Of a stretch of 64,000 nucleotides of DNA, positions 13,597 through 53,235 are shown piece by piece (positions within the stretch are counted from its first letter, which is position 1; each line of letters begins with the position of its first letter). Under the pieces are notes generated by a model. The model saw nothing but the letters and a program-made list of their open reading frames with translations. It was not told where the DNA came from and searched no databases. Where the stretch lies: positions 92,756 to 156,755 of the forward strand of contig CAWALA010000001.1 in assembly GCA_963782655.1 (NCBI GenBank), given 5' to 3'. The position numbers and the translations under genes were made by a program. Source of the stretch: an uncultured beta proteobacterium (GTDB taxonomy: Bacteria; Pseudomonadota; Gammaproteobacteria; Burkholderiales; SG8-39).

Positions 13597-15139
<1,543 letters not shown>

Positions 15140-18814: not shown

Positions 18815-18820
18815 AGGTAG

Positions 18821-18846
18821 GAAAATAGGGTCTGTCCCTATTTTTC
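18821..18846. repeat. palindromic repeat unit (GAAAATAGGG-tctgt-CCCTATTTTTC), terminator-like hairpin; member of the GGGACAGACCCC-core repeat family
   Basis: Perfect 9-bp arms. Related copies at 36834, 37134/37167, 42685, 42785, 52797. Confidence 0.6.
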
Positions 18847-18928
18847 GGAAACATTCTGTTGCAATTCTTCGGGGTTTTTGGGCGACTGTAAGGCGGCGAA
18901 GGCGTTGAATCATGGCAGGAGGTACGCC

Positions 18929-34308: not shown

Positions 34309-37300
34309 ATGAAGCCCGAGCATCCCCCGGCCGACGCCATCGTCATTCGCGGCGCGCGCCAGAACAACCTCAAGAACCTGACGCTGTCGCTGCCGGCGAA
34401 CGAGCTGATCGTCGTCACCGGCGTGTCTGGCTCGGGCAAGTCCTCGCTCGTCTTCGACACCCTGTACGCCGAGGGGCAGCGGCGCTACGTCGAGACCTTC
34501 AGCCCCTACGCGCGCCAGTTCCTCGAGCGCATGGACAAGCCGCAGGTGGACGCGATCGAGGGCATCCCGCCGGCGATCGCCATCGACCAGACCAACCCGG
34601 TGCGCACCTCGCGCTCCACGGTCGGCACGATGACCGAGCTGAACGACCACCTGAAGCTGCTCTTCGCGCGCGCGGCGAAGCTGCATTGCCGCAAGTGCGG
34701 CAAGCCGGTGCGGCGCGACACGCCGCGAGTCCATCTATCGAGGCGCTCGCCGCGCAGGCGGACGCGCGCCTGGAGATCACCTTCCCGGTGCCGATCCCGA
34801 AGAACTTCACCGAGAAGGAGGTCGAGGAGCTGCTGCAGCGCCAGGGCTACACGCAGCTGCACTCGCGCTCGAAGACCCTGATCGAGGTGATCCAGGACCG
34901 CGTGCGCCCCGGCACGACCGAGAAGGCGCGCGTGATGGACGCCATCGACTCGGCGCTGCGCTACGGCCAGGGACGCCTCAACGTTTACGCCGAAGATCGG
35001 GGACGATCCCGACTTGTCCGAATCATGGAGAAGCCGAGACCATGAGGTCTGATCCGCACCGCTCTCCGCTTTTCGACCGCTCTGCACTGCGCCGACTGCG
35101 ACATCGCGTACGCGGAGCCCACGCCCGCGGCGTTCTCGTTCAATTCGCCGCTGGGCGCGTGCGAGACCTGCCGCGGCTTCGGGCGCGTGATCGGCGTGGA
35201 CTACGGCCTGGTCATTCCGGACGAATCGAAGACGCTGCGCGAGGGCGCGATCAAGCCCTGGCAGACGCCGAGCTTCAAGGAATGCCAGGGCGACCTGGCG
35301 AAGTACGTGAAGAAGCACGGCGTGCCCATGGACCTGCCCTGGCGCGAGATGAAGGCGGAGCACCGCGCCTGGGTGCTCGAGGGCGACGCGGACTGGGTGA
35401 GCTGGAAGAAGTCCTGGCCCGGCAAGTGGTACGGCGTGGGGCGCTTCTTCAAGTGGCTGGAGAGCAAGGCCTACAAGATGCACATCCGCGTGCTGCTCTC
35501 CAAGTACCGCGCCTACACGGAATGCTCGGCCTGCGGCGGCGCGCGCCTCAAGCCCGACGCGATGCTGTGGAAGATCGAGGGCCGCACGATCCGCGACCTG
35601 ATGCTGATGCCGGTGAGCGAGGTGCAGCGCTTCTTCGCGGCACTGCAGCTGCCCGCGCCGCTGGACGAGGCCACCGACCTGCTGCTCGGCGAGATCCGCA
35701 CGCGCCTTGCGCTACCTGGGCGAGGTGGGCCTGGGCTACCTCACGCTCGACCGCCAGTCGCGCACGCTCTCGGGCGGCGAGGTGCAGCGCATCAACCTCA
35801 CCACGGCGCTCGGCACGTCGCTGGTCAACACGCTGTTCGTGCTGGACGAGCCCTCGATCGGTCTGCACCCGCGCGACATGGGGCGCGTCATCGGCGTGAT
35901 GCGCAGGCTGCGCGACGCCGGCAACTCGCTCGTGGTGGTGGAGCACGATCCGCAGATCATGTTCGCCGCCGACCGCATCCTCGACATGGGCCCGGGCCCG
36001 GCGAGCGCGGCGGCGAGGTGGTGTTCTTCGGCCCGCCGGCCGAACTGCGCAAGGCGCGCACGCTGACCGCCGAGTACCTCTCGGGCCGCAAGCGCGCCGA
36101 AGCGCCGCGCGCGCCGCAGAAGCCGGAGAAGTTCCTGCAAGTGCTGGGCGCCGCCGAGCACAACCTGAAGGACCTCGACGTCTCGATCCCGCTCGAGCGC
36201 CTGGTGTGCGTGACCGGCGTGTCGGGCTCGGGCAAGTCCACGCTGGTGCAGGACGTGCTCTACGCCGCGCTGCTCAAGGCCAAGGGCAAGCCGACCGAGG
36301 CGCCGGGCAGGCACCGCGCGCTGCGCGGCGCGGAAGCGATCGGCGAAGTGGTGATGGTCGACCAGTCGCAGATCGGCAAGACCACGCGCTCCAACCCGGC
36401 GAGCTACGTCGGCGCCTTCGACGCGATCCGCGACCTGTACGCGCAGCGCGCCGGTGTCGAAGGAGCGCAAGTACACCGCCGGCACCTTCAGCTTCAACTC
36501 CGGCAACGGCCGCTGCCCGGCCTGCGGCGGCAACGGCTTCGAGCACGTCGAGATGCAGTTCCTCTCCGACGTGTACCTGCGCTGCCCGGACTGCGACGGC
36601 AAGCGCTACCGCCCCGAAGTTCTGGAAGTGACGGTGCGCGGCAAGAGCATCGCCGAGGCGCTGGAGATGACGGTGTCCGAGGCAGTGGTGTTCTTCAAGG
36701 AAAACGCCGAGGTGCTGGCGCGCCTGCAGCCGCTCGCCGACGTCGGCCTGGACTACCTGCGCCTCGGCCAGCCCGTGCCCACGCTCTCCGGCGGCGAAGC
36801 GCAGCGCCTCAAGCTGGCGGGGCACCTGGCGAGAAAAAATCGGGGACAGACCCCAGTTGTCTCCAAACTGTTCCTGTTCGACGAGCCGACCACCGGCCTG
36901 CACTTCGAGGACATCGCCAAGCTGCTGCGCGCGTTCCGCAAGCTGCTCGCCGCCGGACACTCGCTGGTGGTGATCGAGCACAACCTCGACGTGATCCGCG
37001 CCGCCGACTGGATCCTCGACCTCGGGCCGGAAGGCGGCGACGCCGGCGGCGAGCTGGTCTGCGCAGGAACGCCCGCGAGCCGTGATGCAGCATGCGACGT
37101 CGCACACCGGCAAGGCGCTGCGGGAATACGAGGAAAAAATAGGGACAGACCCCGATTTCGTTGCAGAAAAAGCGGGTCTGTCCCGTATCTTGTCAACTCC
37201 ATCCGGATCCACAACGCGCGCGAGCACAATCTCAAGTCCATCGACGTCGAGATCCCGCGCCAGCGCTTCACCGTGGTCACCGGCGTCTCCGGCTCCGGCA

Positions 37301-39824
37301 AGTCCACCCTCGCCTTCGACATCCTGTTCTCCGAGGGCCAGCGCCGGTACCTCGAGTCGCTCAACGCCTACGCGCGCCAGTTCGTGCAGGTCGCCGCGCG
37401 CCCGGACGTCGACGCCATCTACGGCATCCCGCCCACCGTGGCGATCGAGCAGCGCACCAGCCGCGGCGGCAGGAAGAGCACGGTGGGCACGCTCACCGAG
37501 ATCCACCACTTCCTGCGCCTGCTGTTCGTCAAGCTCGGCACGCAGCACTGCCCCGACTGCGACGTGCCGATCGAGCCGCAGAGCGAGGACGCGATCGCCG
37601 CGCGCCTGATGAAGGAGCACCGCGGCGAGACGGTGGTGATGCTGGCGCCGCTGGTCGTCAACCGCAAGGGCGTCTACACCGATCTCGCCAAGTGGGCCGC
37701 GGCCAAGGGCTACTCGCAGCTGCGAGTGGACGGCAAGCTCCTCCCGCTTCGGCCCTTCCCGCGCCTGGACCGCTTCAAGGAGCACAACATCGAGCTGCCG
37801 GTGGGCTACACCAAGGTCGCACCGCGCAACGAGAAGGAGCTGCGCGAGCGCCTCGCGAAGGCGCTCGAGTTCGGCAAGGGCGTGGTCCACGTGCAGACCG
37901 GCAAGAGCATCCAGGTGTACTCGACCAAGCGCGCCTGCCCCTCGTGCGGCCGCAGCTTCCAGGAACTCGACCCGCGCCTGTTCTCCTACAACTCGCGCCA
38001 CGGCTGGTGCGCGAGCCTGCGTCGGCACCGGCCTGCAGCTGAAGGACGTCGGCTGGGACGCGGAGCGCTCGCGCACCGGCCAGGAAGACCACGTGCTCGA
38101 CTCCTGGATCGAGTGGCTGGAAGTGGACGAGGCCTGCCCCGCGTGCAAGGGCGATCGCCTCAATCCGGAAGCGCTCGCCGTGCGCTGGCGCGGCCGCAAC
38201 ATCGCCGCCTACGGCGGCGAGCCGGTGGAACGCCTCGCCGCGCTGTTCGAGGGCGTGCAAGCTGGAGGGCCGCGAACGCGAGATCGCGCGCGACCTGCTC
38301 GCCGAGCTGCGCAGCCGCCTCGGCTTCCTGAAGGAGGTCGGCCTCTCCTACCTCACGCTCGACCGCTCGGCGCCCACGCTCTCGGGCGGCGAAGCGCAGC
38401 GCATCCGGCTCGCCGCGCAACTGGGCTCCAACCTGCGCGGCGTGTGCTACATCCTCGACGAGCCGACCATCGGCCTGCACCATCGCGACAACCGGATCCT
38501 GCTCGACGTGCTGGAGAAGCTCGAGGCCAAGGGCAACACGCTGGTGGTGGTCGAGCACGACGAGGACACCATCCGCCGCGCGCACCACGTCATCGACCTC
38601 GGCCCCGGCGCCGGCAAGCTCGGCGGCCGCGTCATCGCCGAGGGCACCGCCGAGGAACTGATGCAGTCGCCCGACTCCATCACGGGCAGGTTCCTTGCCA
38701 ACCCGCTGCGCCACCCGCTGCAGCCGCGCCGCCCGGTGAAGAGGGACGCCCCGGCGATCGAGCATCGCCGGCGCCTCGATGCACAACCTGAAGAAGGTGG
38801 ACCTGCGCATCCCGCTCGGCCGCCTGGTCGCGATCACCGGCGTCTCCGGCTCCGGCAAATCGACGCTCGCGCGCGACGTCCTGCATGACAGCCTCAAGGC
38901 CGGCGGCCCGATCGGCTGCAAGGCGATCAAGGGACGCAAGCTCATCGAGCGCGTGCTCGAAGTGGACCAGGCGCCGATCGGCAAGACGCCGCGCTCCTGC
39001 CCCGCGACCTACGTCGGCTTCTGGGATTCGATCCGGCGCCTGTTCGCCGACACGAGCGAGGCGCGCATCCGCGGCTGGAGCGCGAGCCGCTTCTCCTTCA
39101 ACACCAAGGGCGGCCGCTGCGAGAGCTGCGAGGGCCAGGGCATGAAGAAGATCGAGATGAGCTTCCTGCCCGACGTGAAGGTGGCCTGCGAGGCCTGCGG
39201 CGGGCAGCGCTTCAATGCCGAGACGCTCTCGGTGCGCCTGCGCGGCAAGACCGTGGGCGAGGTGCTGGCGATGAGCGTGGACGAGGGCGTGGAGTTCTTC
39301 GCCGCGCATGCGTCGATCCACCACGCGCTGCGCCTGCTGCAGGACGTCGGCCTGGGCTACCTGACGCTCGGCCAGCAGAGCCCGACGCTCTCCGGCGGCG
39401 AGGCACAGCGCATCAAACTGGTTACCGAACTCTCGAAAGTGCGCGGCGTTCTGGGCGCCTTGGGGGTGGGGGTGGGGTTGGCGTTCTACAGATCTCCCGT
39501 CTTCCGCTCGCGGAAGAAGGGAGACCGTTTTCCAAAGCAATCGCACCCTGTACGTGCTCGATGAGCCCACCGTCGGCCTGCACATGGCCGACGTCGAGAA
39601 GCTGATCCGCGTCCTGCACCGCCTGGTCGACGCGGGCAATACCGTCGTGCTCATCGAGCACAACCTCGACGTCATCGCGGAAGCGGACTGGCTCATCGAC
39701 CTCGGCCCCGAGGGCGGCGACGGCGGCGGCAAGCTGGTCTACCAGGGACCTCCCGAGAAGGCTGCGCGCGGGCCATACGGCACAGGCGCTTTCCGCCTTT
39801 CTCGCCGAACGCACCGCCGCGTGA
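34309..39824 (+). CDS. tandem-fused double UvrA-like protein (two complete UvrA ATPase modules, about 1838 codons), uvrA paralogue; at least 8 frameshifts in this assembly
   Basis: Module 1 (34309 to about 37130): [25 protein letters not shown], UvrB-binding-like insert, Zn fingers ([17 protein letters not shown]; CSACGGARL; CPACGGNGF...CPDCDGKRY), LSGGE signatures, C-terminus ...[12 protein letters not shown]. Module 2 (about 37190 to 39824) starts [50 protein letters not shown] with no stop or start codon between the modules, and ends ...[16 protein letters not shown]. Confidence 0.6.
36834..36858. repeat. palindromic repeat unit (AAAAAATCGGGGACAGACCCCAGTT) embedded in-frame in UvrA module 1 between the ABC signature and Walker B
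   Basis: Encodes extra residues ...[13 protein letters not shown]... where canonical UvrA has the short RSTGRT loop. Confidence 0.55.
37134..37191. repeat. two inverted copies of the palindromic repeat (AAAAAATAGGGACAGACCCCGATTT ... AAAAAGCGGGTCTGTCCCGTATCTT) forming the linker between the two UvrA modules
   Basis: GGGACAGACCCC and GGGTCTGTCCC are reverse complements. A roughly 58-bp composite hairpin. Confidence 0.55.
39445..39548. repeat. about 105-bp insertion inside UvrA module 2 (between [17 protein letters not shown] and [12 protein letters not shown]) containing a G4-forming tract and a 14-bp-stem hairpin
   Basis: GGGCGCCTTGGGGGTGGGGGTGGGG (four G-runs) then AGATCTCCCGTCTTCCGC-tcg-CGGAAGAAGGGAGACC. 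Replaces the 6-aa canonical loop with about 36 aa. Confidence 0.5.
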
Positions 39825-39851
39825 GCGCTGCTTCCCCCGCCGCGGCGCCCG

Positions 39852-40720
39852 GTGGCGCTCGCCCTGATGGTCGTCGCGCCCGTGCTGTGGAGCATGGCGG
39901 GCGTGTTGACGCGGCAGATCCAGAGCGCGGGTGCCTTCGAGATGGCGTTCTGGCGCTCGAGCTTCGCCGCCGTCTTCGTCTTCTGCGCGCTGCTCTGGCT
40001 GCAAGGCCGCCGCCCGTGGCAAACGCTGCGCGCCGCGGGCGTGCCCGGACTCGTCTCCGGCGCGATGTGGGCGGTGATGTTCACCGCTGTTCATCGTCGC
40101 GCTCACGCTGACCACCACCGCCAACGTGCTGGTGATGTCCAGCCTGGGGCCGCTGTTCACCGCGCTCCTCGCCGCCTTCTTCCTGCGCGAGCCGATACCG
40201 GCGCGCAGCCTGGCTCGCCATCGTCGCGGCCAGCGTCGGCATGGCGGCGATGTTCGGCGCCGGATTCGAGGCGGGCGAGCCGCGCGCACCTCGCCGGCAT
40301 GGCGCTCGCGCTCACCATTCCCATCGCCGGCGCTGTCAACCTCGTCGTGCTGCGCAAGAGCGCGGCGCACCTCGACCTGATGCCCGCGGTGATGCTCGGC
40401 GCGTTGATCTCCGCTGCGGTGACGCTGCCGTTGGCGCTGCCGTTCCAGGCGAGCGCGCGCGACCTGCTGGTGCTCGCGACGCTCGGCGTGTTCCAGCTCG
40501 GCGTGCCCTGCATGCTGCTGGTGCTCGTCAGCCGCACGCTTCACCGCGCCCGAGATCGCGCTGCTCGCGCTGCTGGAGGTGGTGCTCGGTCCGCTGTGGG
40601 CCTGGCTCGGCGCGGGCGAAGCGCCCGGCACCGCGACGCTCGCCGGCGGCGCCATCGTGCTCGCTGCGCTCGCGGGCAACGAGCTTGCCGCGCTCGCCTC
40701 GCGCCGCCGCGCGGCGTAAT
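39852..40720 (+). CDS. DMT-superfamily (EamA-like) transporter; about 3 frameshifts
   Basis: [23 protein letters not shown]... and later EamA-like segments in ORFs 40126-40380 and 39852-40754, ending ...[10 protein letters not shown]. Confidence 0.5.
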
Positions 40721-40810
40721 CGACGTCGTCGCCAAGCGTCACCCGCCTGTGTGATCCAGCGCACGCTGGCGCGCGGAACTTGCGGCGCGCCGTGCTAGTC
40801 TGAAATAGCC

Positions 40811-41398
40811 ATGAGAGTCCTTTCCCTGCTATTCGCCTTGCTCCTGCCGGTTGCCGCCACGGCGGCGCAGGAACTCGCGCCAGACGCGCTGGTGCGCCAG
40901 GTTACGGCCGATGTGCTCGAATCGATCCAGAACGATGCGGCGCTGCAGGCCGGCGACCGCAAGAAGGCGATCGCGCTCGCCGAGCAGAAGGTGCTGCCGC
41001 ACATCGATTTCACCGAGGCGACACGGCTGGCACTGGGAAGCTGGTGGAAAACCGCGACGCCGGCGCAGCGCGAGAGACTGTCCACGGAGTTCCGCGGCCT
41101 GCTGGTGCGCACCTACGCCAATGCCATCGGCGGGTACAAAGGCCAGACCATGCGCGTGCTGCCGCTGAAACTCGATGCGGGTGCCGACGACGTCATCGTG
41201 CGCAACCAATTCCTGCGCCCCGGCGCACCGCCGCTGCGCGTCGACTACGCGATGTACAAGACGCCCCAGGGCTGGAAGATCTACGACATCGTCGCCGAAG
41301 GCGTGAGCCTGGTGCTCGCCTATCGCACCGAGTTCGACCAGGTGGTGCGCCAATCGGGAATCGACTCGCTCATCCAGCGCATCGCGGAAAAGCAATAG
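40811..41398 (+). CDS. MlaC/Ttg2D-family periplasmic lipid-binding protein
   Basis: Intact 195 aa with signal peptide. ...KVLPHIDFTEATRLALGSWW...YKTPQGWKIYDIVAEGVSLV... (toluene-tolerance Ttg2D signature). Confidence 0.75.
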   Translation: MRVLSLLFALLLPVAATAAQELAPDALVRQVTADVLESIQNDAALQAGDRKKAIALAEQKVLPHIDFTEATRLALGSWWKTATPAQRERLSTEFRGLLVRTYANAIGGYKGQTMRVLPLKLDAGADDVIVRNQFLRPGAPPLRVDYAMYKTPQGWKIYDIVAEGVSLVLAYRTEFDQVVRQSGIDSLIQRIAEKQ

Positions 41399-41460
41399 CG
41401 TCCCGCAGCGCTCTCGTGTATACTGCGCTCCGCAGTACACGTCTCGCGTCATCCGGTTAG

Positions 41461-42780
<1,320 letters not shown>

Positions 42781-42784
42781 GCGC

Positions 42785-42807
42785 GAATCGGGGTCTGACC
42801 CCGATTT
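42785..42807. repeat. palindromic repeat variant (GAATCGGGGTCTGACCCCGATTT) immediately after the helicase stop; terminator-like hairpin
   Basis: 8-bp perfect arms AATCGGGG/CCCCGATT around TCTGA. Confidence 0.55.
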
Positions 42808-42870
42808 GCTACGTCGTCACCCGCGCGCGCACCGGGACCCCGCGGTTGCGGGTGACTGGGCTGTCCGGCG

Positions 42871-43470
42871 CTAGTGGAACTTCGCCGGAGTGGAGAACGG
42901 CTTGCTCGCGTCCACGACGAACATGACCAGCGCATTGAGGTCGGTCGTGCCGCTGCTGAAAACTTCCATCGGCGTGTCGGCCCCGCGCCCGTTCATGGTT
43001 TTGCCGGGCTCGACATGACTCACGCCTCCCGGGGTCTTCTGGCCAAGGCGTCCGGTGAGCACGTAGAAGGCCTCTGAGCCCGGATGCGTGTGCACCGGGG
43101 TCTTCGCGCCGGGCGCTCCGCCCGTATGGTTGACGCGCAGCAGATACTCGGACGCCGCGATCGCGGGAACCGGCCCGATCTCGGCGATCGTGGTGCCTCC
43201 GGCCGTCGAGCCCCCCTTTGCACCGAGCGTGAAGAGCCAGGCTTTCCCGGCAACCTCGGCCGCGAGTGACGTCGGGCCAGTGGCAGCCTGCGCCTCGGCA
43301 AGGGTGGGGTAAGTCTCGACCAGCCAGTACAGCTCTCCAGCCGGCAGCTGCTTCAGCTTCTTCTGCGCCACCGGCTTGATGAAGAATTGGGGCTGTGCGA
43401 GGGCGGCCGGCTGCCACGCGAGGGCCGCAGCCAGCAAGGCCGCGGCCATCCAGATCGGAACCTGCTTCAT
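42871..43470 (-). CDS. secreted cupin-domain protein
   Basis: ATG at 43470 preceded by a GGAGA Shine-Dalgarno sequence. Signal peptide MKQVPIWMAAALLAAALA. ...HTHPGSEAFYVLTG (cupin motif 1). Confidence 0.6.
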   Translation of the reverse strand: MKQVPIWMAAALLAAALAWQPAALAQPQFFIKPVAQKKLKQLPAGELYWLVETYPTLAEAQAATGPTSLAAEVAGKAWLFTLGAKGGSTAGGTTIAEIGPVPAIAASEYLLRVNHTGGAPGAKTPVHTHPGSEAFYVLTGRLGQKTPGGVSHVEPGKTMNGRGADTPMEVFSSGTTDLNALVMFVVDASKPFSTPAKFH

Positions 43471-43612
43471 TGCGGTATCTCCTTTAATGGGAGGGGGTGG
43501 AAATCCGCGGCATAGACGGCGCTTTTTCCTTGCGCACCTGGCTCGAGAGCTACCCGATGAGCAGCCCGCAGTACCTCGAAAGGTTGCAGAGTCTGCTCGC
43601 GAGGGCGGGGCT

Positions 43613-44962
43613 TTAGGGCCACTCGGGTCGATGATGGCCCAGCGGAACGGGCGGTCGAGACCAGCGCGGCGGGGTCTCCGACATCTGCAGCACCGCGCCG
43701 AGGTGCGTGATCCGGCCCGCGGGTGACTCAACCTCCGCGGTAAGACCCTCCGGAATCTCGGCAAGCGGCGCGGCGGCATCCACAGTGCCGCGATCCACGA
43801 TCCATTTCCCGGTGCGCGCGAGCGCCACGCGCACCAGCCAGCTGCCGCCTTCGCGCGCGCGTCGCGCCAGCGCGGCCATGGCGCCGTATGCCATGAGGTA
43901 CCCGCTCACGTAGTCGATCGCGGAGCACGGCAGGAGCTTCGGCGCGCCGGCGTCGCCCTGCGCCAGCGCCATGCCGCTCACCGTCTGCACGATGCTGTCG
44001 AAGCCGCGGCGATTCTTCCAGGGTCCAGTTTGTCCCCAGGCATTCAAGGACACGTAAACGATGCCCGGGCGCAGCTTCACGGCTTGCTCGGGCGAGAAAC
44101 CGCGTCCCGCGAGTGCGCCGGGACGATAAGACTGGGAAAAGACGTCGGCGCTGCTCAACAATCCGCGCAGCGTCTCCACGCCTTGCGCCGACCGGAGGTC
44201 CAGGTGCGCGGCGAGCTTGCCCAGTCCCGTATCGATCTCGATGGCTCCGGAGTCCGGCAGGTGCGCCGCGGTGATCTTGAGCACATCCGCGCCGTGCTCG
44301 GCCAGCGTCTTGGCGCAGGTCGGGCCGGCCAGCACGCGCGTGAGGTCGAGCACGCGCACGCCAGCAAGCGGCCGGTCGCCCTTGGGCAGGGCCTGTGGCG
44401 GCGCATCGCCGATTCTCTCGATCTCGAGCAGCGGCTGGGTCGCCACCGCCGCGGCATGCGGATGCGCCACCCATTCGGCGGCAGACCGCGCGAGGCCCGC
44501 GCAACCGCCGGCAGCGTGGATCGCTTCCTCGAGCGCCTGACCATCCCACGCCTTGCTCGCCTCGTTCGCCTTGGCGCGGTCCTCGCCAGTGCCCAGGACC
44601 TGCAGCGCCGCCGCGCGGTGGTTGGGGAAATTGCAGTGGATACTGACCCAGCGCCCGTCGCGCACCGGGTAGAACCCGCTCATCGGGTCCCAGGGCGCGG
44701 GCGGCGCCTTGCCGTCGATCCTGAGGTAATAGCCGCTGCGCAGCGCAGCGGCCGCTGCGCGCAGGTCCACGGCGACGCGCTGGCGCCTGCCCGTGCGCAG
44801 TGCCCAGAGTTCCGCAGCGGCCAGTCCGACCGCGGCTAGCGCCGCCGCGCCTGCAGTGCCGACACGATAAGGCGTGCGCAGCACCGGCTCGGCGCCCGTG
44901 AACTGCGCGTCGCCCCCCAGTTGCCCGAGCGCGAGCAGTTCGCGCAATGCGGCCTGCGGCAT
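43613..44962 (-). CDS. CoA transferase, family III (CaiB/BaiF)
   Basis: Intact 449 aa. ...GVRVLDLTRVLAGPTCAKTLAEHGADVLKI... Confidence 0.8.
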   Translation of the reverse strand: MPQAALRELLALGQLGGDAQFTGAEPVLRTPYRVGTAGAAALAAVGLAAAELWALRTGRRQRVAVDLRAAAAALRSGYYLRIDGKAPPAPWDPMSGFYPVRDGRWVSIHCNFPNHRAAALQVLGTGEDRAKANEASKAWDGQALEEAIHAAGGCAGLARSAAEWVAHPHAAAVATQPLLEIERIGDAPPQALPKGDRPLAGVRVLDLTRVLAGPTCAKTLAEHGADVLKITAAHLPDSGAIEIDTGLGKLAAHLDLRSAQGVETLRGLLSSADVFSQSYRPGALAGRGFSPEQAVKLRPGIVYVSLNAWGQTGPWKNRRGFDSIVQTVSGMALAQGDAGAPKLLPCSAIDYVSGYLMAYGAMAALARRAREGGSWLVRVALARTGKWIVDRGTVDAAAPLAEIPEGLTAEVESPAGRITHLGAVLQMSETPPRWSRPPVPLGHHRPEWP

Positions 44963-45001
44963 GGCTTACGTTAGCACGCGGTCGGCTAAACTTGCACGAC
45001 C

Positions 45002-47508
45002 ATGCGCGAGCCCACACCCAGGACGATCCACCTCAAGGACTACACCCCGCCCGCGTTTCTCGTCACGCACGTCGAGCTCGACGTGGACATCCGCCAGGAC
45101 GACGCCCTGGTGCGCGCCAAGCTGCAGGTGAAGCGCAATGCCGGTCCGGGTCCGCTGGTGCTGGAGGGCGACGAGCTGGAGCTGGTCTCCGTGTTCGTCA
45201 ACGGCCAGCCCGCGGCGCACAGCGTCGCGCCCGACCGGCTCACCGTTCCCGAAGTGCCCGACGCCTTCATGCTCGAGACCGTGACGCGCATCGTGCCGCA
45301 GAAGAACACCAAGCTCGAGGGCCTCTACGCGACGCAGCACGGCTTCGTCACGCAGTGCGAGGCCGAAGGCTTTCGCCGCATCACCTGGTTCGTGGACCGC
45401 CCGGACAACATGGCGCGCTACGTGGTCACCGTGCACGCCGACAAGGCGAAATTTCCCGGTGCTGCTCTCCAACGGCAACCTGGTCGCCGCGGGCGCCGAG
45501 GCCGGCGGCCGTCACTGGGCGAGGTTCGACGATCCGTTTCCCAAGCCCTCCTACCTCTTCGCGCTGGTCGCGGCGAACCTGGAACTGCTCGAGGATTCCT
45601 TCACCACCCGCTCCGGCAAGAAGGCGAAGCTCGGCGTCTACGTCGAGCCGGGCAAGCTCGACCAGGCCGGCTGGGCGATGGATTGCCTCAAGCGCGCGAT
45701 GCAGTGGGACGAGGAGCGCTTCGGCCTGGAGCTCGACCTCGACCAGTACAAGATCGTCGCGGTCGGCGACTTCAATTCCGGCGCGATGGAGAACAAGGGC
45801 CTCAACATCTTCAACACCAAGTACGTCCTCGCGCGCCCCGACACCGCCACCGACGCCGACTACCAGGCCATCGACTCGGTGGTGGCGCACGAGTACTTCC
45901 ACAACTGGACCGGCGACCGCGTCACCTGCCGCGACTGGTTCCAGCTCTCGCTGAAGGAGGGCCTCACGGTGTTCCGCGACCAGGAGTACAGCGCGGACCT
46001 GTACTCGCGCGCGGTCGAGCGCATCCAGAACGTGCGCATGCTGCGCGCCGGGCAGTTCCCCGAGGACGCCGGGCCGATGGCGCACCCGGTGCGGCCGCAG
46101 TCCTACATGGAGATCCGCAACTTCTACACCATGACGGTGTACGAGAAGGGCGCGGAGGTGGTGCGCATGCAGCACACGCTGCTCGGCGAGGAGAAGTTCC
46201 AGGCCGGCATGCGCCTGTACTTCGAGCGCCACGACGGCCAGGCGGTGACCTGCGACGATTTCGTGCAGGCGATGCAGGACGCGAGCGGCGTGGACCTGGG
46301 CCAGTTCCGGCGCTGGTACGACGTCGCCGGCACGCCGGTGCTCGACTGCTCGGGCGAGCACCGCGACGGCACGTTCACGCTGCGCGTGAAGCAGTCCATG
46401 AATCCGCCGTTCCACATCCCGCTGGCGGTGAAGATCGGGGCGCAAGAGCAAGTGCTGTCGCTCAGGCAGGCAGCAGGAGACCTTCTGCGTTCAAGGTGGC
46501 AGCAGAAGCCCGTGCCGTCCCTGCTGCGCGGCTTCTCGGCGCCGGTGATCCTCAACTACCCGTACACCGAAGGCGATCTGCTGCACCTGCTGGCGCACGA
46601 CGACGACGCCGTTCAACCGCTGGGAGGCGGCGCAGCGGCTCGCCGCCGAGGTCATCCTCGGCAGGCGCGGCGCGCCCTCGCCCGCGTTCCTCGGGCGGCG
46701 CAGCGCGTGCTCGACGACCCGGATCCCGCCTTCGCCGCCGAGGCGCTCGACGCTGCCCTCGGAAACCTTCCTCGCCGAGCAGCTCGAGGTGGTGGATCCC
46801 GATGCGCTGCACGCGTCGCGCAATGCGCTGCGAAGGCGATCGCGCCGGCGCTCAAGGACGCGTTGCGCGCGAAGTACCTGGACCTCAGGATCGACGGGGC
46901 CGTATTCCCCCGATGCCGGTGCAGGTCGGGCGGCGCACGCTGCGCAACCTGTGCCTGGGCTACCTCGCCGAGCTCGGCATGACGCGCGCTCGCCTACGAG
47001 CAGTTCAGGGCTGCGGACAACATGACCGACGCGATGGCGGCGCTCTCCGCGCTCGCCAACGCGCGACTGCCCGGAGCGCCAGCCGGCGCTGGAGGCGTTC
47101 TACGCGAAGTGGCAGGACGAGCCGCTGGTGGTGGACAAGTGGCTCGCGGTGCAGGCCGGCTCGCGGCTGCCCGGCACGCTGGCGCGCGTGCGCGAGCTGC
47201 TCGCGCATCCCGCCTTCGACCTCAAGGTGCCGAACAAGGTGTACGCGCTCATCCGCAGCCTTCAGCGCCAACCACGTGCGCTTCCATGCCGCCGACGGCG
47301 GAGGCTATGCGTTCCTCGCCGACCGCGTGATCGAGCTGAACGGGCTCAACCCGCAGGTGGCGGCGCGCATGGCGCGCGGCTTCGACCGCTGGAAGAGGTT
47401 CGACGCCAGCCGCCAGGCGAAGGCGCGCGCGGCGCTCGAGCGCATCCGCGACGCCCAGGACCTTTCGCGCGACGTGGCCGAGATCGTCGGCAAATCCCTG
47501 GGCTGAAC
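45002..47508 (+). CDS. pepN: aminopeptidase N (M1 family); at least 4 frameshifts
   Basis: ...[12 protein letters not shown]...[36 protein letters not shown] (GAMEN plus HEXXH-18-E). Confidence 0.85.
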
Positions 47509-47515
47509 GCCTCGC

Positions 47516-48743
47516 ATGGACACGAGCGTGGTGGCGGTGTTCGCGGTCGTGTACCTGGGGATGATCCTCGGCGGGCTGCCGTTCCTGCAGCTCGACCGCA
47601 CCGGCGTGGCGCTGCTCGGTGCCATCGCCATCGTGGCCCTGGGCGCGCTAACGCCAGAGGAGGCGGCGCTGTCGATCCACCTGCCGACGCTGCTGCTGCT
47701 GTTCTCGTTCATGGTGATCTCGGCGCAAATGCGCCTGGGCGGCTTCTACACGCGCGTCACGCTGCAGGTCGCCGAGCTGCGGCTCTCGCCGCCGGCGCTG
47801 CTCGCTGCGATGATCGCGGTGGTGGGCACGCTGTCCGCCATGTTCAGCAATGACGTCATCTGCCTCGCCATCGCGCCGGTGCTGGCCGACGCCTGCCTCG
47901 CGCGGCGCCTGGATCCCGTGCCCTACCTGCTCGGGCTCGCCTGCGCGGCGAACGTCGGATCGGCCGCCACGCTGATCGGCAACCCGCAGAACATGCTCAT
48001 CGGACAGGTGCTCGAGTTGTCGTTCCCCGGCTACTTCCTGCGAGGCCGTCGTGCCCGTGCTGCTCGGTCTCGCCGCCACCTGGGGCGTGATCGCCTGGCA
48101 GACGCGCGGCCGCTGGCGCACCGTTCTGGACGACCCGCCGCCCGAGCGGCGCCAGGACACTCGCCGTCTACGACCGCTGGCAGTCCGCGAAGGGCCTCGC
48201 GGTGGCCGGCGCGCTGCTCGCCGTGTTCCTGTTCACCGACCTGCCGCGGGAAGTCGCGGCGCTCACCGGCGCGGGGTTGCTGCTGATGAGCCGCAAGCTG
48301 CACTCGAACAAGATGCTGGGCCTGGTGGACTGGGAGCTCCTGATCCTGTTCATCGGCCTGTTCGTTGTGAACCACGCACTCGCGCAGACCGGCCTCGCCG
48401 AGTCGGCGGTGACAAGCGCTGGCCGATGCGGGCATGCCGCTGTCACAGCCGGGGCCGTTGTTCGTCGCGACGCTCGCTGCTGTCCAACGTGGTCTCCAAC
48501 GTTCCCGCAGTGATGCTGCTGCTGCCCGCGGCCACGGAGACGTTCTCCGGGCCGATGCTCGCGCTGGTCAGCACGCTGGCGGGCAACCTGTTCATCGTCG
48601 GCTCGATCGCCAACATCATCGTGGTGGACGCAGCGCGGCGCCGCGGCATCGCGATAGACTGGCGCAGCCACGCGCGCGCCGGCGTGCCGGTTACGCTGAT
48701 CACGCTGGCGATCACCGCGGCGTGGTTCGCATTGCGACACTGA
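47516..48743 (+). CDS. anion permease of the ArsB/NhaD (IT) superfamily; at least 4 frameshifts
   Basis: Multiple TM segments with duplicated halves, ...GNPQNMLIG... and ...GSIANIIV... motifs typical of ArsB/NhaD-type permeases. Confidence 0.55.
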
Positions 48744-48847
48744 GCGCGCCGGCACAGGTGTCGGGGCGCCGCGACGTCCCGGGCTTACCGCAAGACGCTG
48801 CGCAAATCGTCACAAAGTCGCTCCAGTGAGCCGGGCTACTGCGCAAT

Positions 48848-49609
48848 TTGCCCTTGAGCCCGGCGTACAAGCTGGCATTGTGGGCGCTCTTGAACTCTCC
48901 TGACATCACCTCGCGGCTGGCCACCACCGGCCAGCTCCTCGTTCGCTCGGGGATCGAAATCGGCCGACTCCTGGGCTCGATGCGCGAGGACGGCGATGCC
49001 GTGACCGGAAATCTCCCGTCGCAGATGCTGTTCCTCTCGAAGCTGCTCTACGTAGAGCCGGTGAGCGGATACATGCTGCTCGCACTACTCCGATCACAAG
49101 GCGGCCAACACGGCGGCGCTGGCGGTGCGCTCGCTCACGCTGCGCTGCAACCATCGCGGCGCGCAGTTCGCTTTCGCCGGCGACAAGCCGCGGCAAACGG
49201 CCTACGCAGGCCAACCCTGCATCCAATGCGGGTTGCCTACGGCGATACTGGGGATGCAGCAGCGCCGCGGCCTCGCCCGCGTCCAGGTGCCGGCGCAGGC
49301 GCCGGTGCGCTGCGACCTGCGCATGGGCCTGCAGGCCTTCGCGTCCAGGGTGGTCGACGTCAGCCTCGATGGCATCGGCGCGCTGATCATCCGACCCTAC
49401 GATCCCCCTGTGCGCCGGCACGCTGCTGGAGCACGCGCGCATCTGGCATCCTCAGGTCGAGCCCTTCCATGTCGACCTCGAAGTGCGCCACGTCACCCGC
49501 GCCACCCTGGCCAACGGCCAGCGGGTCAGCCGCATCGGCTGCAAGGTGGTCGGCTCGCGCGAGGTCCTGGAAGAACTCATTCGCCTGTTCATCATCGATC
49601 TGGCCTGAC
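48848..49609 (+). CDS. PilZ-domain protein with YcgR-like N-terminal domain (putative c-di-GMP effector); 2 frameshifts
   Basis: N-terminus ...ITSRLATTGQLLVRSGIEIGRLLG.... PilZ motifs ...RRGLARVQVPA... and D.S..G. (VVDVSLDGIGALI). Confidence 0.5.
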
Positions 49610-49653
49610 CGGGCTGCAGCAGCGGTCGTTGTCGAATAGACTTCCGGGTTCCA

Positions 49654-50310
49654 TGGACAGCACGCTTCACCTGGTCCTCGCGACCGTGGTGTTCCTCGGC
49701 CTGCACGTCCTGCCCAGCACGCCGCTGCGCGCGCTGGCGGTACGGCTGATCGGCGAAGGCCCCTACCTCGGGCTGTTCTCGCTTCTGTCGGCCGCCGGCC
49801 TGGTGTGGATGTCGGTGTCGTACGGCCGCGCGCCGATGGAGGCGCTGTGGCCGGCCCAGCACTTCGTACCGATTTTCGTGCTGCCATTCGCCTTCGTGCT
49901 GCTCGCCTGCGGCCTGCTCGCACGCAATCCGACGGCGACCGGGCAGGCCGGCGTGCTCAAGCACGGCGACGCAGCGCGCGGCATCCTGCGCATCACGCGC
50001 CATCCCGTCATGTGGGCCATCATGCTGTGGGCCGGCGCGCACATGCTCGCAGTCGGCTCGCTGCGCTCCGTGGTGTTCTTCGGCGGCCTGCTGCTGCTTG
50101 CCGCCGCCGGCACCACGCTGCAGGACGCGCGCAAGGCAAAGGCGCTGGGCGAGGACTGGAAGCGCTTTGCCGCCTCGACTTCGAACCTCCCCTTCGCCGC
50201 CATCGCGCAGGGCCGCAACAAGCTGGTGTGGCGGGAGATCGGCTGGTGGCGGCCCGCCGTCGGGCTCGTACTGTGCGGGGTCGTCCTCTACTCTCCACCC
50301 CTGGCTCTTC
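49654..50310 (+). CDS. NnrU-family membrane protein
   Basis: MDSTLHLVLATVVFLGLHVLPSTPLR...ITRHPVMWAIMLWAGAHMLAVG (NnrU signature). The last about 15 aa are frameshifted. Confidence 0.6.
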
Positions 50311-50328
50311 GGCTACCGCGCGTTACTG

Positions 50329-51122
50329 ATGGCGCCGCGCAAGGCGCGCGCGATCGCCGTGGCGCCCGCTGCCGGCGTGGCGGCGGCGAGGCGCGCGACG
50401 CTGCGCGAGGCGCTCGATCAGGTCCTCGCCAACATCCCGGGGACCCTGGCCGGCAAGGACCCGGAATACCTGCACCAGCTGCGCGTGGGAACGCGGCGCC
50501 TGCGCGCGGCGCTGCGCGTCTTCCGCGGCACGATGCAGCGCAAGGACGAGCGTGCGCTGCTGCGCACGTTGCGCAAGATGGCCGACGCCAGCGGCCCGGC
50601 GCGCGATTGGGACGTCAACGCGCCGCGTCTGCCGATGCGGCTGCGCGCCGAGGCCGCACGGCGGCGGCGCGCCGCGCATGCGCAGCTTCGGCGCGTCATC
50701 GGCGCCGTACAGCTCTGGATGCTGCCGCGCGGGCTCGCGGCCACCCGGCCCGCCCTGGACGCGTTCGCCCGCGAGGTGCTCGAGTCGCTGGATCGGAAAG
50801 CCACGCGCAAGGGCCAGGGAATCGATTGGAAGCGCGCGGGACAGCGCCACGCGTTGCGCATCCGCCTGCGCCGGCTGCGCTATACCAGCGAGTTTCTGAG
50901 CGGCGCGTTCCCCGGGCGGGACAGCGAGGCGCTGGTGCACAGCCTCAAGCAGCTGCAGGACCTGCTCGGAGAGCTGAACGACCTGGAGGTGGCGCGCCGG
51001 CTGACGCGGGAGCTCCCGGCAAACGGCGCCCGGCTTCGCCGACGGTGCGCGAGCAAGCGCTCCTGCGGCAATTGCCCGCGCCTGGCGAACGCTTTGCCGC
51101 CGCGCCGCGCTTCTGGCGCTGA
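50329..51122 (+). CDS. CHAD-domain protein; one frameshift near the 3' end
   Basis: ...YLHQLRVGTRRLRAALRVF...RHALRIRLRRLRYTSEF... (conserved-histidine alpha-helical domain pattern). Confidence 0.55.
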
Positions 51123-51148
51123 GCGCCCGGCGCAGGGCGTGGCGGCAG

Positions 51149-52559
51149 CTAGAGCGAACGCAGGAAGTTGAGCAGGTCCTGCTTCTGGCTGTCCCTGCAG
51201 GCCGTCGAATCTGCCGATCACGCCGTTCGCCTCCGAGCCTTCGCTGCGATGCTCGCCGAATCGCCTGCATCAGGTCCGTCGTGCGCCCGTCGTGCAGGAA
51301 GAAGATGCGCTGGCCCGAGGCCCCACAGCGGCGCGGTGCGGAACTCGCGCGGCCCCGCCTGGCCCTGCGAGACGCCGTCGGCCAGCCCGTCGCCCATGTC
51401 GTGCACCAGCAGGTCGGAGTAGAGGTTGACGTCCCGGTTGCGCAGCGCCACCACCGTCGAGTTGCCGGTGCGCAGCGTCGGCGTGTGGCAGAGCGCGCAC
51501 CCGATGCTGTCGAACAGCGTCGCGGCCCCTCGCGATCGATTGCGGCTCCGCCCGGCGTATCCGGGGAAGGCCTCGGCGGCGCGAGGAAGCGCTGGAAGTT
51601 GGCGAAGTTCTGGATCGCCGTGGTGCCGGTGAGAGCGTCGAGGGCGTCAAAGTCTTGCGTGTCGTTGGGAACCGTCGCGAACTGGCATGACGGAGTCTCG
51701 TCCCGCTCCACCTGGAACAGCTCGCTGGTGATGCCCATCTCCACGTTGTACGCCTCGCCGGAGAACAGCAGCAGGGATCTGGTTCTGGGCCTTCCATCCG
51801 AACCGGGCGATCGTGCCGTCATTGCCGTTGTTGTTCGCCTGGCCCGGAGATCGGTGCGGCCGGAGACGCGCGAAATTCGCCCGCCCGCGTATTCCCAGGT
51901 CCCTCTTCCGGCTCGAGCTGGCGGCCTGATTCGCCAGGATCGCCGCGTCCGGGATCTGTTCGATCAGGCCGGCGCCGAATACCGGGGTCGGAATCCGGAA
52001 GATCACGTTGCGGTTCGCTAATCTCCCGCTCGAAGTCCGGCTGCGCGAGTCTGCAGCCCGGCGGCGCCGCACCCGGCCGGCCGGTGATGGTGAACAGCGC
52101 ATGGACGCCGCCGTCCGGCGTACCGTCAGGGTTCCGCACGAACCTCGCTTCGCGAACCGGCCCATTCGCGCCTGATGAACGACGACTGCGGGGAGTTGGC
52201 GCCGGCGTCCTTCGTTGGCGAATGCCACCTGAGGATTCACCGCCGGGCTCGTTCCGCCGGTCGCCGGCTGCGAATGGCAGCCGCCGCAAGCGTCCAGGTT
52301 CATCCTCGGTCCCAAGCCGTCGGCGACGCTCTTCCACTTCCTCGAATTCTTCCTTGCCCAATCTGAAGAACCGGATCTCGTTGTCGGTCAGGCGGGCGAT
52401 GTGCCCCCCGGCGCTCGGACGAGCGCCCGGAGGATCCACGCGCACGCCCGGATCGCGCACGCCATCCCGCAACTGCGAAGAGACGGGGTCAATGGAAAAA
52501 GCGGCCGCAACAGCGAACGCTGTCGTGGAAATGGCAAGCAACATCGATTTCCTGTGCAT
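51149..52559 (-). CDS. di-haem cytochrome c peroxidase-like / DUF1111 family thiol oxidoreductase; at least 4 frameshifts
   Basis: Signal peptide MHRKSMLLAISTTAFAVAAAFS. CGGCH haem site, ...EFRTAPLWGL..., C-terminus ...QKQDLLNFLRSL* recovered across frames. Confidence 0.6.
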
Positions 52560-52796: not shown

Positions 52797-52826
52797 GGAA
52801 AATCGGGGTCAGAGCGCGATTCTTAT
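52797..52826. repeat. degenerate copy of the palindromic repeat (AAATCGGGGTCAGAGCGCGATTCTT) immediately 3' of the thioesterase gene
   Basis: Arms AATCGCGC/CCCCGATT (2 mismatches) around TCTGA, read on the minus strand. Confidence 0.4.
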
Positions 52827-53215: not shown

Positions 53216-53235
53216 GTGCAGGCTATGATAGCCGC

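Follow-up and report, generated by a model that had tools for sequence, protein, structure and literature searches.

The window analysed here is a stretch of 64,000 nt from the genome of a 69%-GC betaproteobacterium, and it contains genes for a fused double UvrA and for an RhlE-like DEAD-box RNA helicase, together with seven copies of a short, AT-rich palindrome (Table 1). All seven copies had been reported in an initial annotation of the window and each is present within about 2 nt of where it had been placed; the degenerate pattern proposed for them, when searched in the window, returns 7 strand-hits against 0.00 expected. Four of the seven are intragenic and are spread over three protein segments, namely a loop in UvrA module 1, the linker between the two UvrA modules and the basic C-terminal tail of the helicase. 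In all three, length and sequence are hypervariable from one homologue to the next.

Table 1. Host genes, palindrome copies and an unrelated insert in the window
Feature	Position (nt)	Strand	Remark
Extragenic copy GGAAAATAGGGTCTGTCCCTATTTTTCGG	18818..18848	-	covariance model 44.4 bits
Fused double UvrA, two complete modules; host gene	34309..39832	+	intact orthologous ORF in L122
UvrA module 1 loop copy, intragenic	36833..36863	+	covariance model 33 bits
UvrA inter-module linker copy AAAAAATAGGGACAGACCCCGATTTCG, intragenic	37132..37162	+	covariance model 31.5 bits
Inverted linker partner, REPIN-like doublet with the 37132 copy	37164..37194	-	20.5 bits, E 0.011
Unrelated 88-nt insert, G-run and hairpin TCTCCCGTCTTCCGC-tc-GCGGAAGAAGGGAGA	39447..39534	+	equivalent loop, UvrA module 2
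RhlE-like DEAD-box RNA helicase; host gene	41495..42780	+	Helicase_C
DEAD-box helicase tail copy, intragenic	42682..42712	+	covariance model 44.8 bits
Extragenic TCTGA-loop variant GCGAATCGGGGTCTGACCCCGATTTGC	42781..42811	-	covariance model 26.8 bits
Decayed sister-subfamily copy, loop GTCAGAG	52797..52826	+	orthologues in L117, L118

The palindromes belong to a repeat family that extends well beyond this window. The initial annotation had allowed that only these few copies might exist; a scan of the collection matched at least 115 loci, some of them in Pseudoduganella and MFD04428 assemblies, and 102 core-containing copies among the matches listed share a consensus of ~27 nt, rAAAAT-R-GGGACAGACCC-Y-ATTTTyc, in flanks that are unrelated to one another and of background composition. 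This set of 102 consists of high-GC loci and takes in the window's own five copies and two in L116. The consensus is without a GTAG or CGTC tag. A unit is laid out as an A-rich arm, GGG(G), the loop ACAGA, (C)CCC and a T-rich arm, and is far AT-richer than the host genome. In the stem alignment 89% of stem cells are paired, with a closing pair of A-U in 32 and of G-C in 31, and stem covariation was 0.211 versus 0.122, a value reached by 0 of 500 shuffles. A covariance model (R1) trained on 78 copies, all of them from genomes other than that of the window, recovered six significant loci in the window (20.5-44.8 bits), and the 12-mer core is matched there six times with at most one mismatch where 0.33 matches are expected. 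At the gathering threshold, an Rfam scan assigned no family in the window or in the Chloroflexi loci. String searches of the literature with 11-13-mer cores returned unrelated primers only, so that the searchable literature yielded no record of the repeat itself, and a search on REPIN/RAYT and Burkholderiales produced nothing relevant.

Three copies had been described as lying directly behind stop codons, and the stops are where this requires them to be (TGA 18812-14, TGA 42778-80 and, on the minus strand, TAA 52823-25). The first copy lies 6 nt past the stop of an ORF downstream of a rhomboid gene and ~65 nt ahead of a DUF3300 gene; its fold is -13.9 kcal/mol (z -3.7 against shuffles). The second begins 2-3 nt past the helicase stop, in convergent arrangement with a cupin gene, and folds at -20.5 kcal/mol (z -5.8); it is missing in relatives, as is the whole of window positions 42779-43613. 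The third, which abuts the stop of a minus-strand FlK/4HBT thioesterase gene, had been called a degenerate copy. A hairpin relic is indeed present at this site, but it does not belong to the main family: the covariance model does not match it and it has no significant fold in the window (z 0). We assign it to a sister subfamily, as a decayed member, because the orthologous site in both L117 and L118, located at synteny breakpoints, is a perfect hairpin, GAAAATCGGGGTCAGAGCCCGATTTTC.

Among the intragenic copies, the linker pair (37131-37196) has a fold of -27.8 kcal/mol (z -5.3), the helicase-tail copy folds moderately below its shuffles (z -2.3) and the fold of the UvrA-loop copy is not significant (z -1.6). 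Folds far below those of shuffled sequence (z -3.7 to -5.8) belong to the linker pair and to the copies at 18818 and 42781, and not to the UvrA-loop copy or the 52797 relic.

The window assembly is rich in indels, and its coding frames switch every few hundred nt throughout. Relative to the intact orthologue in L122, a syntenic relative with 86% identity, the uvrA gene of the window has six isolated extra bases in 3.6 kb, and spurious +1 insertions occur at about one per 500 nt. Frames are therefore not readable from the window alone, and any inference that uses them is affected by spurious bases. The double UvrA ORF is broken by single-base insertions, and the helicase gene is also frame-broken, with its C-terminal 140 residues in one frame. 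Within the window, the copies in the UvrA loop and the DEAD-box tail do keep the frame, as had been claimed. For the linker, the frame proposed initially does not run into module 2 in this assembly because the pair is bracketed by two differences, +1 near 37076 and +2 near 37176, with frame 1 open throughout; in L122 the linker copy is in frame and is read as EKIGSVPVF.

The UvrA-loop copy is located between the ABC signature motif and Walker B, in the C-terminal nucleotide-binding domain of module 1, where the segment exceeds that of solved UvrA by five residues and the loop is hypervariable. It encodes 12 residues and has a decayed 3' arm (CCCCAGTTGT). In L122 an element is found in frame at the same loop as well as in the linker; that in the loop is read in another frame, giving GEKIGSDPIFPK there versus a different 12-residue peptide in the window. 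The more distant relative L121 is without both UvrA elements. The UvrA-loop element has thus been inherited as DNA: two related lineages translate it in different frames, and its arm is decaying. Relative to the unrelated sequence that it replaces, the element adds a net ~+3 to +9 nt.

The inter-module linker varies from 58 to 124 aa. The L122 copy in this segment has the same stems as that of the window and an inverted 5-nt loop. The partner at 37164 overlies a segment that encodes a conserved KEPAGRYLG in relatives, and its L122 counterpart in the alignment is AAGGAGCCCGCGGGCCGCTATCTTGG, with a difference of 2 nt. Independent doublets occupy the same UvrA loop or linker in L116, L123 and L124, and both UvrA segments have therefore been colonised independently in other lineages. 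We considered that the linker copy might be an intergenic REP absorbed when the two uvrA modules fused, and rejected this as the fusion is common to relatives that have no linker element.

In the helicase, the element encodes ENRDRPHFS in the basic tail, 22 codons ahead of the stop, and contributes a net +9 nt in place of unrelated sequence. The window, L117 and L119 carry the element; L118, L120 and L122 lack it. A further helicase fragment (P0239) is 99% identical, with an identical tail. Between the window and L117 the element is more conserved than the gene around it, which pure neutrality would not predict. The idea that the tail copy became coding through loss of a stop was also rejected, the C-terminal 11 residues beyond the element being conserved in relatives with and without it.

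The initial annotation had further allowed that the intragenic copies might be ordinary coding sequence, shared as peptide by close relatives. With the UvrA-loop element in another frame in L122 and no element in L121, this is not what was found. Neither this possibility nor that of a handful of copies holds, because the family extends further, the orthologues keep the DNA and not the peptide, and the helicase-tail copy is polymorphic.

The location of the family elsewhere was examined for 96 copies among the matches listed, in genomes other than that of the window. Fifty-eight of these (~60%) lie within 40 nt past a stop codon, 21 lie between convergent ORFs, and 55 (~57%) have a partner within 70 nt, forming inverted doublets that are REPIN-like. 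About four of the 96 (~4%) are in frame inside genes (for a penicillin amidase, a CoA-transferase III, an MFS protein and a PAP2 protein), and in the first three a Pfam match runs across the insert. Syntenic loci of close relatives contain few extragenic copies. The initial claim of a palindrome family found both behind genes and in frame inside them is thus borne out by copies elsewhere and by the orthologues. Multi-copy hairpin and doublet forms occur in Burkholderiales, Oxalobacteraceae and Thauera, and further ones in MAGs (GC 0.39-0.74) labelled Acidobacteriota, Propionicimonas, Lentisphaerae, Aminicenantes and Saganbacteria; the 16-nt module AAAAT-N-GGGACAGACCC is also multi-copy in MAGs with a GC of 0.39-0.60 labelled as other phyla.

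Given these observations, the reading that we favor, and hold to be probable, is that the palindromes form a ~27-nt REP-like stem-loop family, multi-copy and mostly post-stop, which has spread duplicatively and of which a few percent of copies have come to lie in frame in genes. In a plausible scenario, the hairpin would be the substrate of a duplicative process by which copies spread, and which by analogy with REP/RAYT systems might involve a single-strand, hairpin-specific transposase. Insertions that break essential folds would be purged, and those in disordered, length-tolerant loops whose net length is a multiple of three would be effectively neutral. Tolerated copies would then persist and drift, and palindrome-driven events, loop inversion or template switching among them, may remodel them. 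The peptides encoded are hydrophilic and Gly/Pro-rich in every frame (GTDP, GQTP, DRP, GSVP and GLS, with flanks of K, N, E, I or F), which probably aids tolerance. At all three intragenic sites the element fills a hypervariable segment of about the same length as the unrelated sequence of relatives, and comparison with these relatives revealed neither a target-site duplication nor a clean empty site; for this reason we can only infer insertion. A tblastn search with an E. coli RAYT query, covering the window and the 115 loci (~0.9 Mb), gave chance matches only; weak matches in L006, L051 and L071 were judged by their ORFs to be chance. RAYTs are single-copy genes, so that their absence from the slices sampled says little. 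ORFs located up to 1.5 kb from copies were clustered all against all; no gene recurred as a neighbour, and the families that emerged were common ones, Bug/TctC-like binding proteins for example.

An alternative that we consider unlikely is that these are functional RNA or transcription elements, with extragenic copies serving as bidirectional intrinsic terminators or stabilisers of mRNA 3' ends and intragenic ones as attenuators or pause sites for UvrA and the helicase. The initial annotation had likened the post-stop copies to terminators, and in position the likeness is good: copies follow stops directly, often between convergent genes, and have an A-tract/hairpin/T-tract architecture, with strong folds for the 18818 copy, the 42781 copy and the linker pair. 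The conservation of the helicase-tail copy between the window and L117 also fits this idea. However, a terminator scan of 36000-54000 flagged neither of the two post-stop copies within that range (42781 and 52797) and returned 7 terminators in total versus 7.9 expected from shuffles. Furthermore: (i) the GC stem is just 3-4 bp, where an intrinsic terminator has at least 5 bp and then an unpaired U-tract, and the T-run is consumed by pairing with the A-arm; (ii) the orientation of the loop relative to transcription is unbiased (10 vs 7); (iii) the UvrA-loop copy has a decayed arm and no significant fold; and (iv) the intragenic copies are missing from close relatives.

We are equally doubtful that palindrome-driven template switching, or short-patch gene conversion from other copies, generates the copies where they stand, such that apparent insertions are conversions of sequence that was already there. 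In favor of this, sequence of similar length has been replaced and clean empty sites are lacking; the 37164 copy aligns base-for-base with the KEPAGRYLG coding sequence of L122 and resembles the reverse complement of the adjacent copy; and, with the asymmetric stems kept, the window and L122 have the 5-nt loop in opposite orientations. Against it, the 27-nt consensus recurs at 102 sampled sites, nearly all of them unlinked and in many genomes, and a consensus shared by unlinked loci calls for a copying mechanism that acts at a distance. Conversion would also require initial homology, which unrelated flanks do not offer.

A more speculative reading, and an improbable one, is that the 16-nt module is the recognition unit of a putative hairpin-specific protein, either a mobiliser or a binder, that has crossed between phyla, with the recurrent, independent colonisation of the same two UvrA segments reflecting a targeting bias or co-option and not mere tolerance. 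If this were true then, in view of the excess of REPs already published for repair genes, one possibility would be that targeting is linked to the replication, transcription or repair of such genes. It is very unlikely that the copies are instead kept, not as selfish DNA, but as putative binding sites of a dimeric DNA-binding protein that would recognise the double-stranded core, GGGGWCWGWCCCC, with its A/T flanks. Such a site could account for the occurrence of all four half-site combinations (ACAGA, TCTGT, TCAGA/TCTGA and ACAGT/ACTGT), for the recurrence of the module under other phylum labels and for the lack of orientation bias; on the other hand, no candidate protein was identified, the A/T arms covary as pairing predicts rather than as base-specific contacts would, and intragenic copies decay. 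Finally, that the intragenic copies are ordinary self-complementary coding sequence or assembly artefacts is scarcely credible: the assembly is error-prone, and one marginal model hit, a palindrome at 13640-13670 (E 0.21) where an aldehyde dehydrogenase gene begins and the sequence resembles an NPAT motif, is probably a chance match of this kind, yet the model, for which extragenic copies of other genomes were the training set, gives the intragenic ones 20-45 bits, assemblies made independently from other samples (L122, L117 and L119) carry the same elements at these sites, and it is the DNA that is conserved, not the peptides.

REP and REPIN elements are mobilised by RAYT transposases in E. 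coli and Pseudomonas, the REP/RAYT work reportedly being that of Nunvar in 2010 and of Bertels and Rainey in 2011. The present family resembles them in being made up of short imperfect palindromes, with inverted doublets that fold into a longer structure and an extragenic location at gene 3' ends; in contrast, a GTAG head was not found, nor a flanked RAYT gene in the loci searched, and the present units are the shorter ones and are much AT-richer than their own genome. The initial annotation had drawn its comparison with Rickettsia palindromic elements (RPEs) and with Correia elements. The former are said to have been described by Ogata and colleagues in 2000, and by Claverie and Ogata in 2003, as selfish DNA inserted in frame in functional genes at surface or permissive sites, work to which PMC3733652 also refers. 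RPEs are restricted to Rickettsia, and RPE-1 is about 100-150 nt long and adds 30-50 residues. In-frame insertion is thus a common feature, whereas the present unit is 27 nt, encodes about 9 residues, is mainly extragenic and resides in a 69%-GC betaproteobacterium. Correia/NEMIS elements of Neisseria and other MITEs are abundant small non-autonomous repeats near genes that can be co-transcribed; they measure 70-300 nt, have an internal segment framed by terminal inverted repeats and are accompanied by target-site duplications (TA in the case of Correia). The repeat described here, unlike these, consists of a single 27-nt hairpin closed by a 5-nt loop, and no duplication is visible at polymorphic sites. 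The comparison is therefore apt insofar as this is an in-frame palindromic family, but the closest analogue is the REP/REPIN-type stem-loop and not the RPE or Correia element.

The closest parallel comes from REPs tagged with GTAG or CGTC, which are 20-40-nt stem-loops located mostly downstream of genes, between convergent or unidirectional ORFs, and often present as inverted dimers (Di Nocera, De Gregorio & Rocco 2013, BMC Genomics 14:522, PMC3733652). A minority lie wholly within ORFs and encode 7-30 residues; hosts include uvrA of Thioalkalivibrio, both uvrA genes of Opitutus terrae (one of them a 1995-aa double UvrA), helicases (O. terrae HrpA in the supplement, RNA helicases in the text) and other repair genes, and these authors likewise invoke flexible linkers and loops (PMC3733652). 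The present family is alike in stem-loop form, post-gene location, dimers and uvrA/helicase hosts; it differs in being untagged, with A/T-only arms and a 3-4-bp GC stem, and no RAYT association was found. According to the conclusions of the same paper, there are also untagged REP-like families in Bordetella, Brucella, M. tuberculosis and cyanobacteria that have no conserved terminal motif and no known transposase (PMC3733652). Our family resembles these in description, and Bordetella also belongs to the Burkholderiales. Intragenic REPs in uvrA and RNA helicase genes have therefore already been published (PMC3733652), and what is new here is the untagged family, which joins that pattern of small palindromes inside uvrA and helicase genes.

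With regard to annotation, AT-rich 27-mers inside 70%-GC genes of this lineage would best be read as REP-like inserts in permissive loops and not as errors, frameshift sites or gene boundaries, and the hypervariable segments of the double UvrA are unsuited to alignment or phylogeny. The comparative series available at one site (filled, in another frame, loop-inverted and empty) could be used to follow how palindromic selfish DNA is tolerated and remodelled.

The loop of UvrA module 2 that is equivalent to the one discussed above also contains an insert, at 39447. It folds at -21.5 kcal/mol (z -3.4) and is single-copy; it is missing in L121 and is 72 nt long and in frame in L122. This insert stands outside the repeat family.

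The A/T-armed hairpins of the window, whose GC content is 65-72%, belong to a multi-copy, covarying hairpin family found in REP-like locations. Every place named in the initial annotation carries a hairpin whose core is GGGACAGACCC(C) or the complement of it, and the degenerate pattern of that annotation gives 7 strand-hits in the window (0.00 expected); the 12-mer core with one mismatch allowed gives 6 matches (0.33 expected). A covariance model of the family, R1, was trained on 78 distinct copies, all from other genomes. Its stem is 10 bp long with 89% of cells paired, stem covariation is 0.211 as compared to 0.122 in shuffles (reached by 0 of 500 shuffles) and the closing pair is split between A-U (32) and G-C (31). 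With filters off, R1 recovered six window loci scoring from 44.8 down to 20.5 bits, and together with the pattern hits this establishes the copies as real. The 52797 copy was undetected in this search; at the orthologous site two relatives have perfect hairpins with another loop, GAAAATCGGGGTCAGAGCCCGATTTTC, so that the window copy is a decayed representative of a sister subfamily. A perfect palindrome at 13640-13670, AAGAGGGTCAGACCCTCTT, encodes EEGQTLF at the beginning of an aldehyde dehydrogenase gene, just 5' of a motif resembling NPAT; because its R1 score is marginal (15.9 bits, E 0.21), it is probably a coincidence.

Hairpin copies and related features in the window and in loci from other genomes or metagenomes (L-numbers)
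Feature	Position	Strand	Context
R1 match	42682-42712	+	helicase tail
R1 match	18818	-	extragenic; 6 nt past a stop, ~65 nt before DUF3300 gene
R1 match	36833-36863	+	UvrA module-1 loop, just before LFLFDEPT
R1 match	37132	+	UvrA linker, first copy of pair 37132-37194
R1 match	42781	-	extragenic; begins 2-3 nt past helicase stop, left edge of ~835-nt extra (cupin) segment
R1 match	37164	-	UvrA linker, second (inverted) copy
GTCAGAG-loop hairpin	52797-52826		extragenic; adjoins thioesterase gene stop, at synteny breakpoint
GTCAGAG-loop hairpin	L117 15235-15257, 16837-16860; L118 6396-6426		
GGGGAC(A/T)GTCCCC variant	L026 406-440; L054 1717-1745, 7667-7745; L106 2318-2400; L119 167-197		
+1 frame-shift examples	36448, 37076, 38016, 38257, 38763, 39770		window uvrA
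Intragenic copy, penicillin amidase	L018 5969		spacer, immediately 5' of SNSW nucleophile; Pfam match spans insert
Intragenic copy, CoA-transferase III			Pfam match spans insert
Intragenic copy, MFS transporter			doublet; Pfam match spans insert
Intragenic copy, PAP2 protein			doublet
AAAAT-N-GGGGACAGACCCC module	L020, L027, L032, L051, L071, L083, L091, L096, L102		MAGs labelled Acidobacteriota, Propionicimonas, Lentisphaerae, Aminicenantes, Saganbacteria, others
Chloroflexi composite element	L011, L045, L060, L095, L112		Anaerolineae/Caldilineaceae MAGs

Beyond the window, AAAAT-N(1,2)-GGGACAGACCC was searched for in 185,579 species genomes and matched at least 115 loci, of which about half, in unrelated genomes of low GC, are matches by chance. 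The remaining loci bear a complementary 3' arm, although the query did not require one, and their hosts are mostly Burkholderiales/Betaproteobacteria MAGs, Pseudoduganella, Telluria, Oxalobacteraceae and Thauera. The consensus of 102 copies is rAAAAT-R-GGGACAGACCC-Y-ATTTTyc, with flanks of background composition and neither GTAG nor CGTC as a terminal tag. Locations were counted for 96 copies in high-GC loci among the matches listed: 58 lie no more than 40 nt downstream of the stop codon of a high-GC3 ORF (21 of them between convergent ORFs), 55 are accompanied, at no more than 70 nt, by a partner copy that is usually inverted and set off by a spacer that lengthens the hairpin, and loop orientation relative to the upstream gene shows no bias (10 vs 7). 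Post-stop location together with pairing is the anatomy of REP/REPIN-type repeats. A related variant with a palindromic core, GGGGAC(A/T)GTCCCC, occurs alongside the ACAGA-loop family in Pseudoduganella and Oxalobacteraceae genomes.

The suggestion that the post-stop copies are terminator-like fits their position, but neither of those in range of a terminator scan of 36000-54000 (42781 and 52797) was flagged and the scan total was not above that of shuffles. The GC stem is just 3-4 bp and the T-run is paired with the A-arm. Hairpins of the GTCAGAG-loop subfamily lie exactly at synteny-block boundaries among the window and two relatives' loci, L117 and L118, and these sites are breakpoints of rearrangement that fall at repeats. 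A window segment of ~835 nt with a minus-strand cupin-like gene (42779-43613) is missing from L117, L118 and L122, which have, after the helicase stop, another GC-rich hairpin (GGCCAC...GTGGTGCC) with the CoA-transferase gene coming directly behind it.

Coding sequence throughout the window, uvrA and the helicase included, changes frame every few hundred bases. When 3.6 kb of uvrA was compared with L122, a syntenic, 86% identical JGI metagenome contig whose uvrA ORF is intact over more than 1200 codons, 11 of 11 gaps were extra window bases, mostly C or G, six of them isolated +1 differences. The source appears to be an insertion-prone assembly that was left unpolished, and gene calls from it will be fragmented. 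Because of these frame errors, in-frame status had to be tested on relatives.

The copy in the UvrA module-1 loop is in frame within the window and, by comparison with solved UvrA structures, falls in the signature-to-Walker-B segment of the C-terminal nucleotide-binding domain, where the window has five residues more than those structures. At this site L122 carries a copy of the family, GAGAAAAGATAGGGTCAGACCCCATTTTTCC, translated in another frame (GEKIGSDPIFPK), and +2 and +1 differences flanking the core bring back the overall frame. In L121, a more distant locus (80% identical), the loop sequence is unrelated and the element absent; in L116 (81% protein identity) an independent inverted doublet occupies the same loop in frame. 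In 120 homologues, LSGGE and DEPT are separated by 31 to 60 residues of unrelated sequence. The helicase-tail copy is likewise in frame in the window, and its tail is matched without a difference by P0239, a gene call of NCBI and ENA. At the same position L117 has an almost identical element and L119 an ACAGT-loop variant; L118, L120 and L122 lack the element and read GGCGGAGCCGCAGCGGCCGCACCGGCC (AEPQRPHRP) there, at a net length difference of only 9 nt. The L119 site is the one occupied by the GGGGAC(A/T)GTCCCC variant. These are hypervariable protein segments, with the element present or absent and sites independently occupied, and the element is inherited as DNA, its reading frame changing and its arms decaying.

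In the UvrA inter-module linker, L122 has just one copy, in frame, where the window has its first. An inversion of the 5-nt loop distinguishes these orthologues (TCTGT in L122 vs ACAGA in the window), and the asymmetric stems are kept (window 37142-37153, TAGGG...CCCCGA vs L122 12078-12108, TTGGG...CCCCGT). Hairpin-loop flips of this kind are known from chloroplast non-coding DNA. The window's second copy aligns with L122 sequence coding KEPAGRYLG, which is common to L122, P0121, P0127 and P0190, and so resembles the product of a local conversion to the complement of the copy beside it. The comparison of window and L122 is thus suggestive of palindrome-driven remodelling (loop inversion and the making of an inverted partner). 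The pair is flanked by +1 (37076) and +2 (37176) differences from L122, of which at least the former is probably an assembly error; net frame is preserved and frame 1 is open throughout, and a conserved 11-residue peptide falls in frame 2. Of the three copies that the initial annotation placed in frame, those of the UvrA loop and helicase tail are so in the window, but at the linker the conserved peptide lies in another frame. The linker element is absent in L121, L123 and L124 have independent inverted doublets of TCAGA-type relatives there, and the SHTG-to-GVSGSGKS distance among homologues is 58 to 124 residues. Comparison with orthologues, proposed earlier as a check, finds the element at UvrA loop and linker in L122, where the loop frame differs from that of the window, and at neither in L121.

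The equivalent loop of UvrA module 2 holds an 88-nt insert (39447-39534) containing a G-run (TTGGGGGTGGGGGTGGGGTTGG) and an unrelated hairpin with a 15-bp stem; it is 72 nt and in frame in L122, lacking in L121, and single-copy across the window, 121 loci and a metagenome scan that found only the orthologue. Between the window hairpin (39493-39524) and that of L122 (9738-9767) the lone mismatch swaps arms (G/A vs T/C) with the central TC unchanged, which could reflect two coupled substitutions or an arm exchange.

In other genomes, 4 of the 96 copies are in frame inside real genes by a relaxed screen, and these, with the intact L122 uvrA ORF, bear out the claim of a palindromic family that also enters genes in frame. 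The penicillin-amidase (Ntn-hydrolase) spacer, a peptide normally excised in autoproteolytic maturation, illustrates a permissive site neatly.

We favor a scenario in which hairpin-mediated duplication would spread the copies and purifying selection would leave only frame-keeping insertions in length-tolerant, disordered segments. No transposase was found by tblastn with an approximate E. coli RAYT query (window and the at least 115 loci) or by clustering of copy-adjacent genes, nor were target-site duplications or clean empty sites found at the compared sites.

The catalogue of GTAG- and CGTC-tagged REPs by Di Nocera, De Gregorio and Rocco (2013; PMC3733652) lists as intragenic hosts uvrA of Thioalkalivibrio, both Opitutus terrae uvrA genes and RNA helicases; Oter_2709 is a 1995-residue double UvrA with one single REP and one dimer. 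Flexible linkers and loops were proposed there as neutral landing sites, and REP-like families without a tag exist (PMC3733652). The window family is like the tagged REPs in every tested respect but two: it has no tag, and the search of the window and the at least 115 loci turned up no RAYT. The likeness drawn earlier to RPEs and Correia elements concerned in-frame intragenic occurrence; size and architecture set the family apart from both, as from other MITEs. The finding is real and its original interpretation essentially correct; the phenomenon is already known, down to host gene classes, and what is new is an untagged member, whose sequence had no match in the literature that could be searched. 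The window and its relatives provide a useful comparative series.

The least ordinary residue of the finding is the recurrence of a 16-nt module as multi-copy elements in MAGs whose labels place them in other phyla and whose GC contents differ widely. Two or three copies of AAAAT-N-GGGGACAGACCCC are found within 30-180 nt of sequence in these MAGs (GC 0.39-0.74); either the family has spread very widely or the contigs are mis-binned. A different composite element, GGGGGGATACCCCCCG-N6-CCCCC-GTCTGTYCC-YAAAATYT-GGGACAGACCC, which had no Rfam match in a scan of its loci, is common to several Chloroflexi genomes; in it AAAAT forms the loop and the 'core' the stem.
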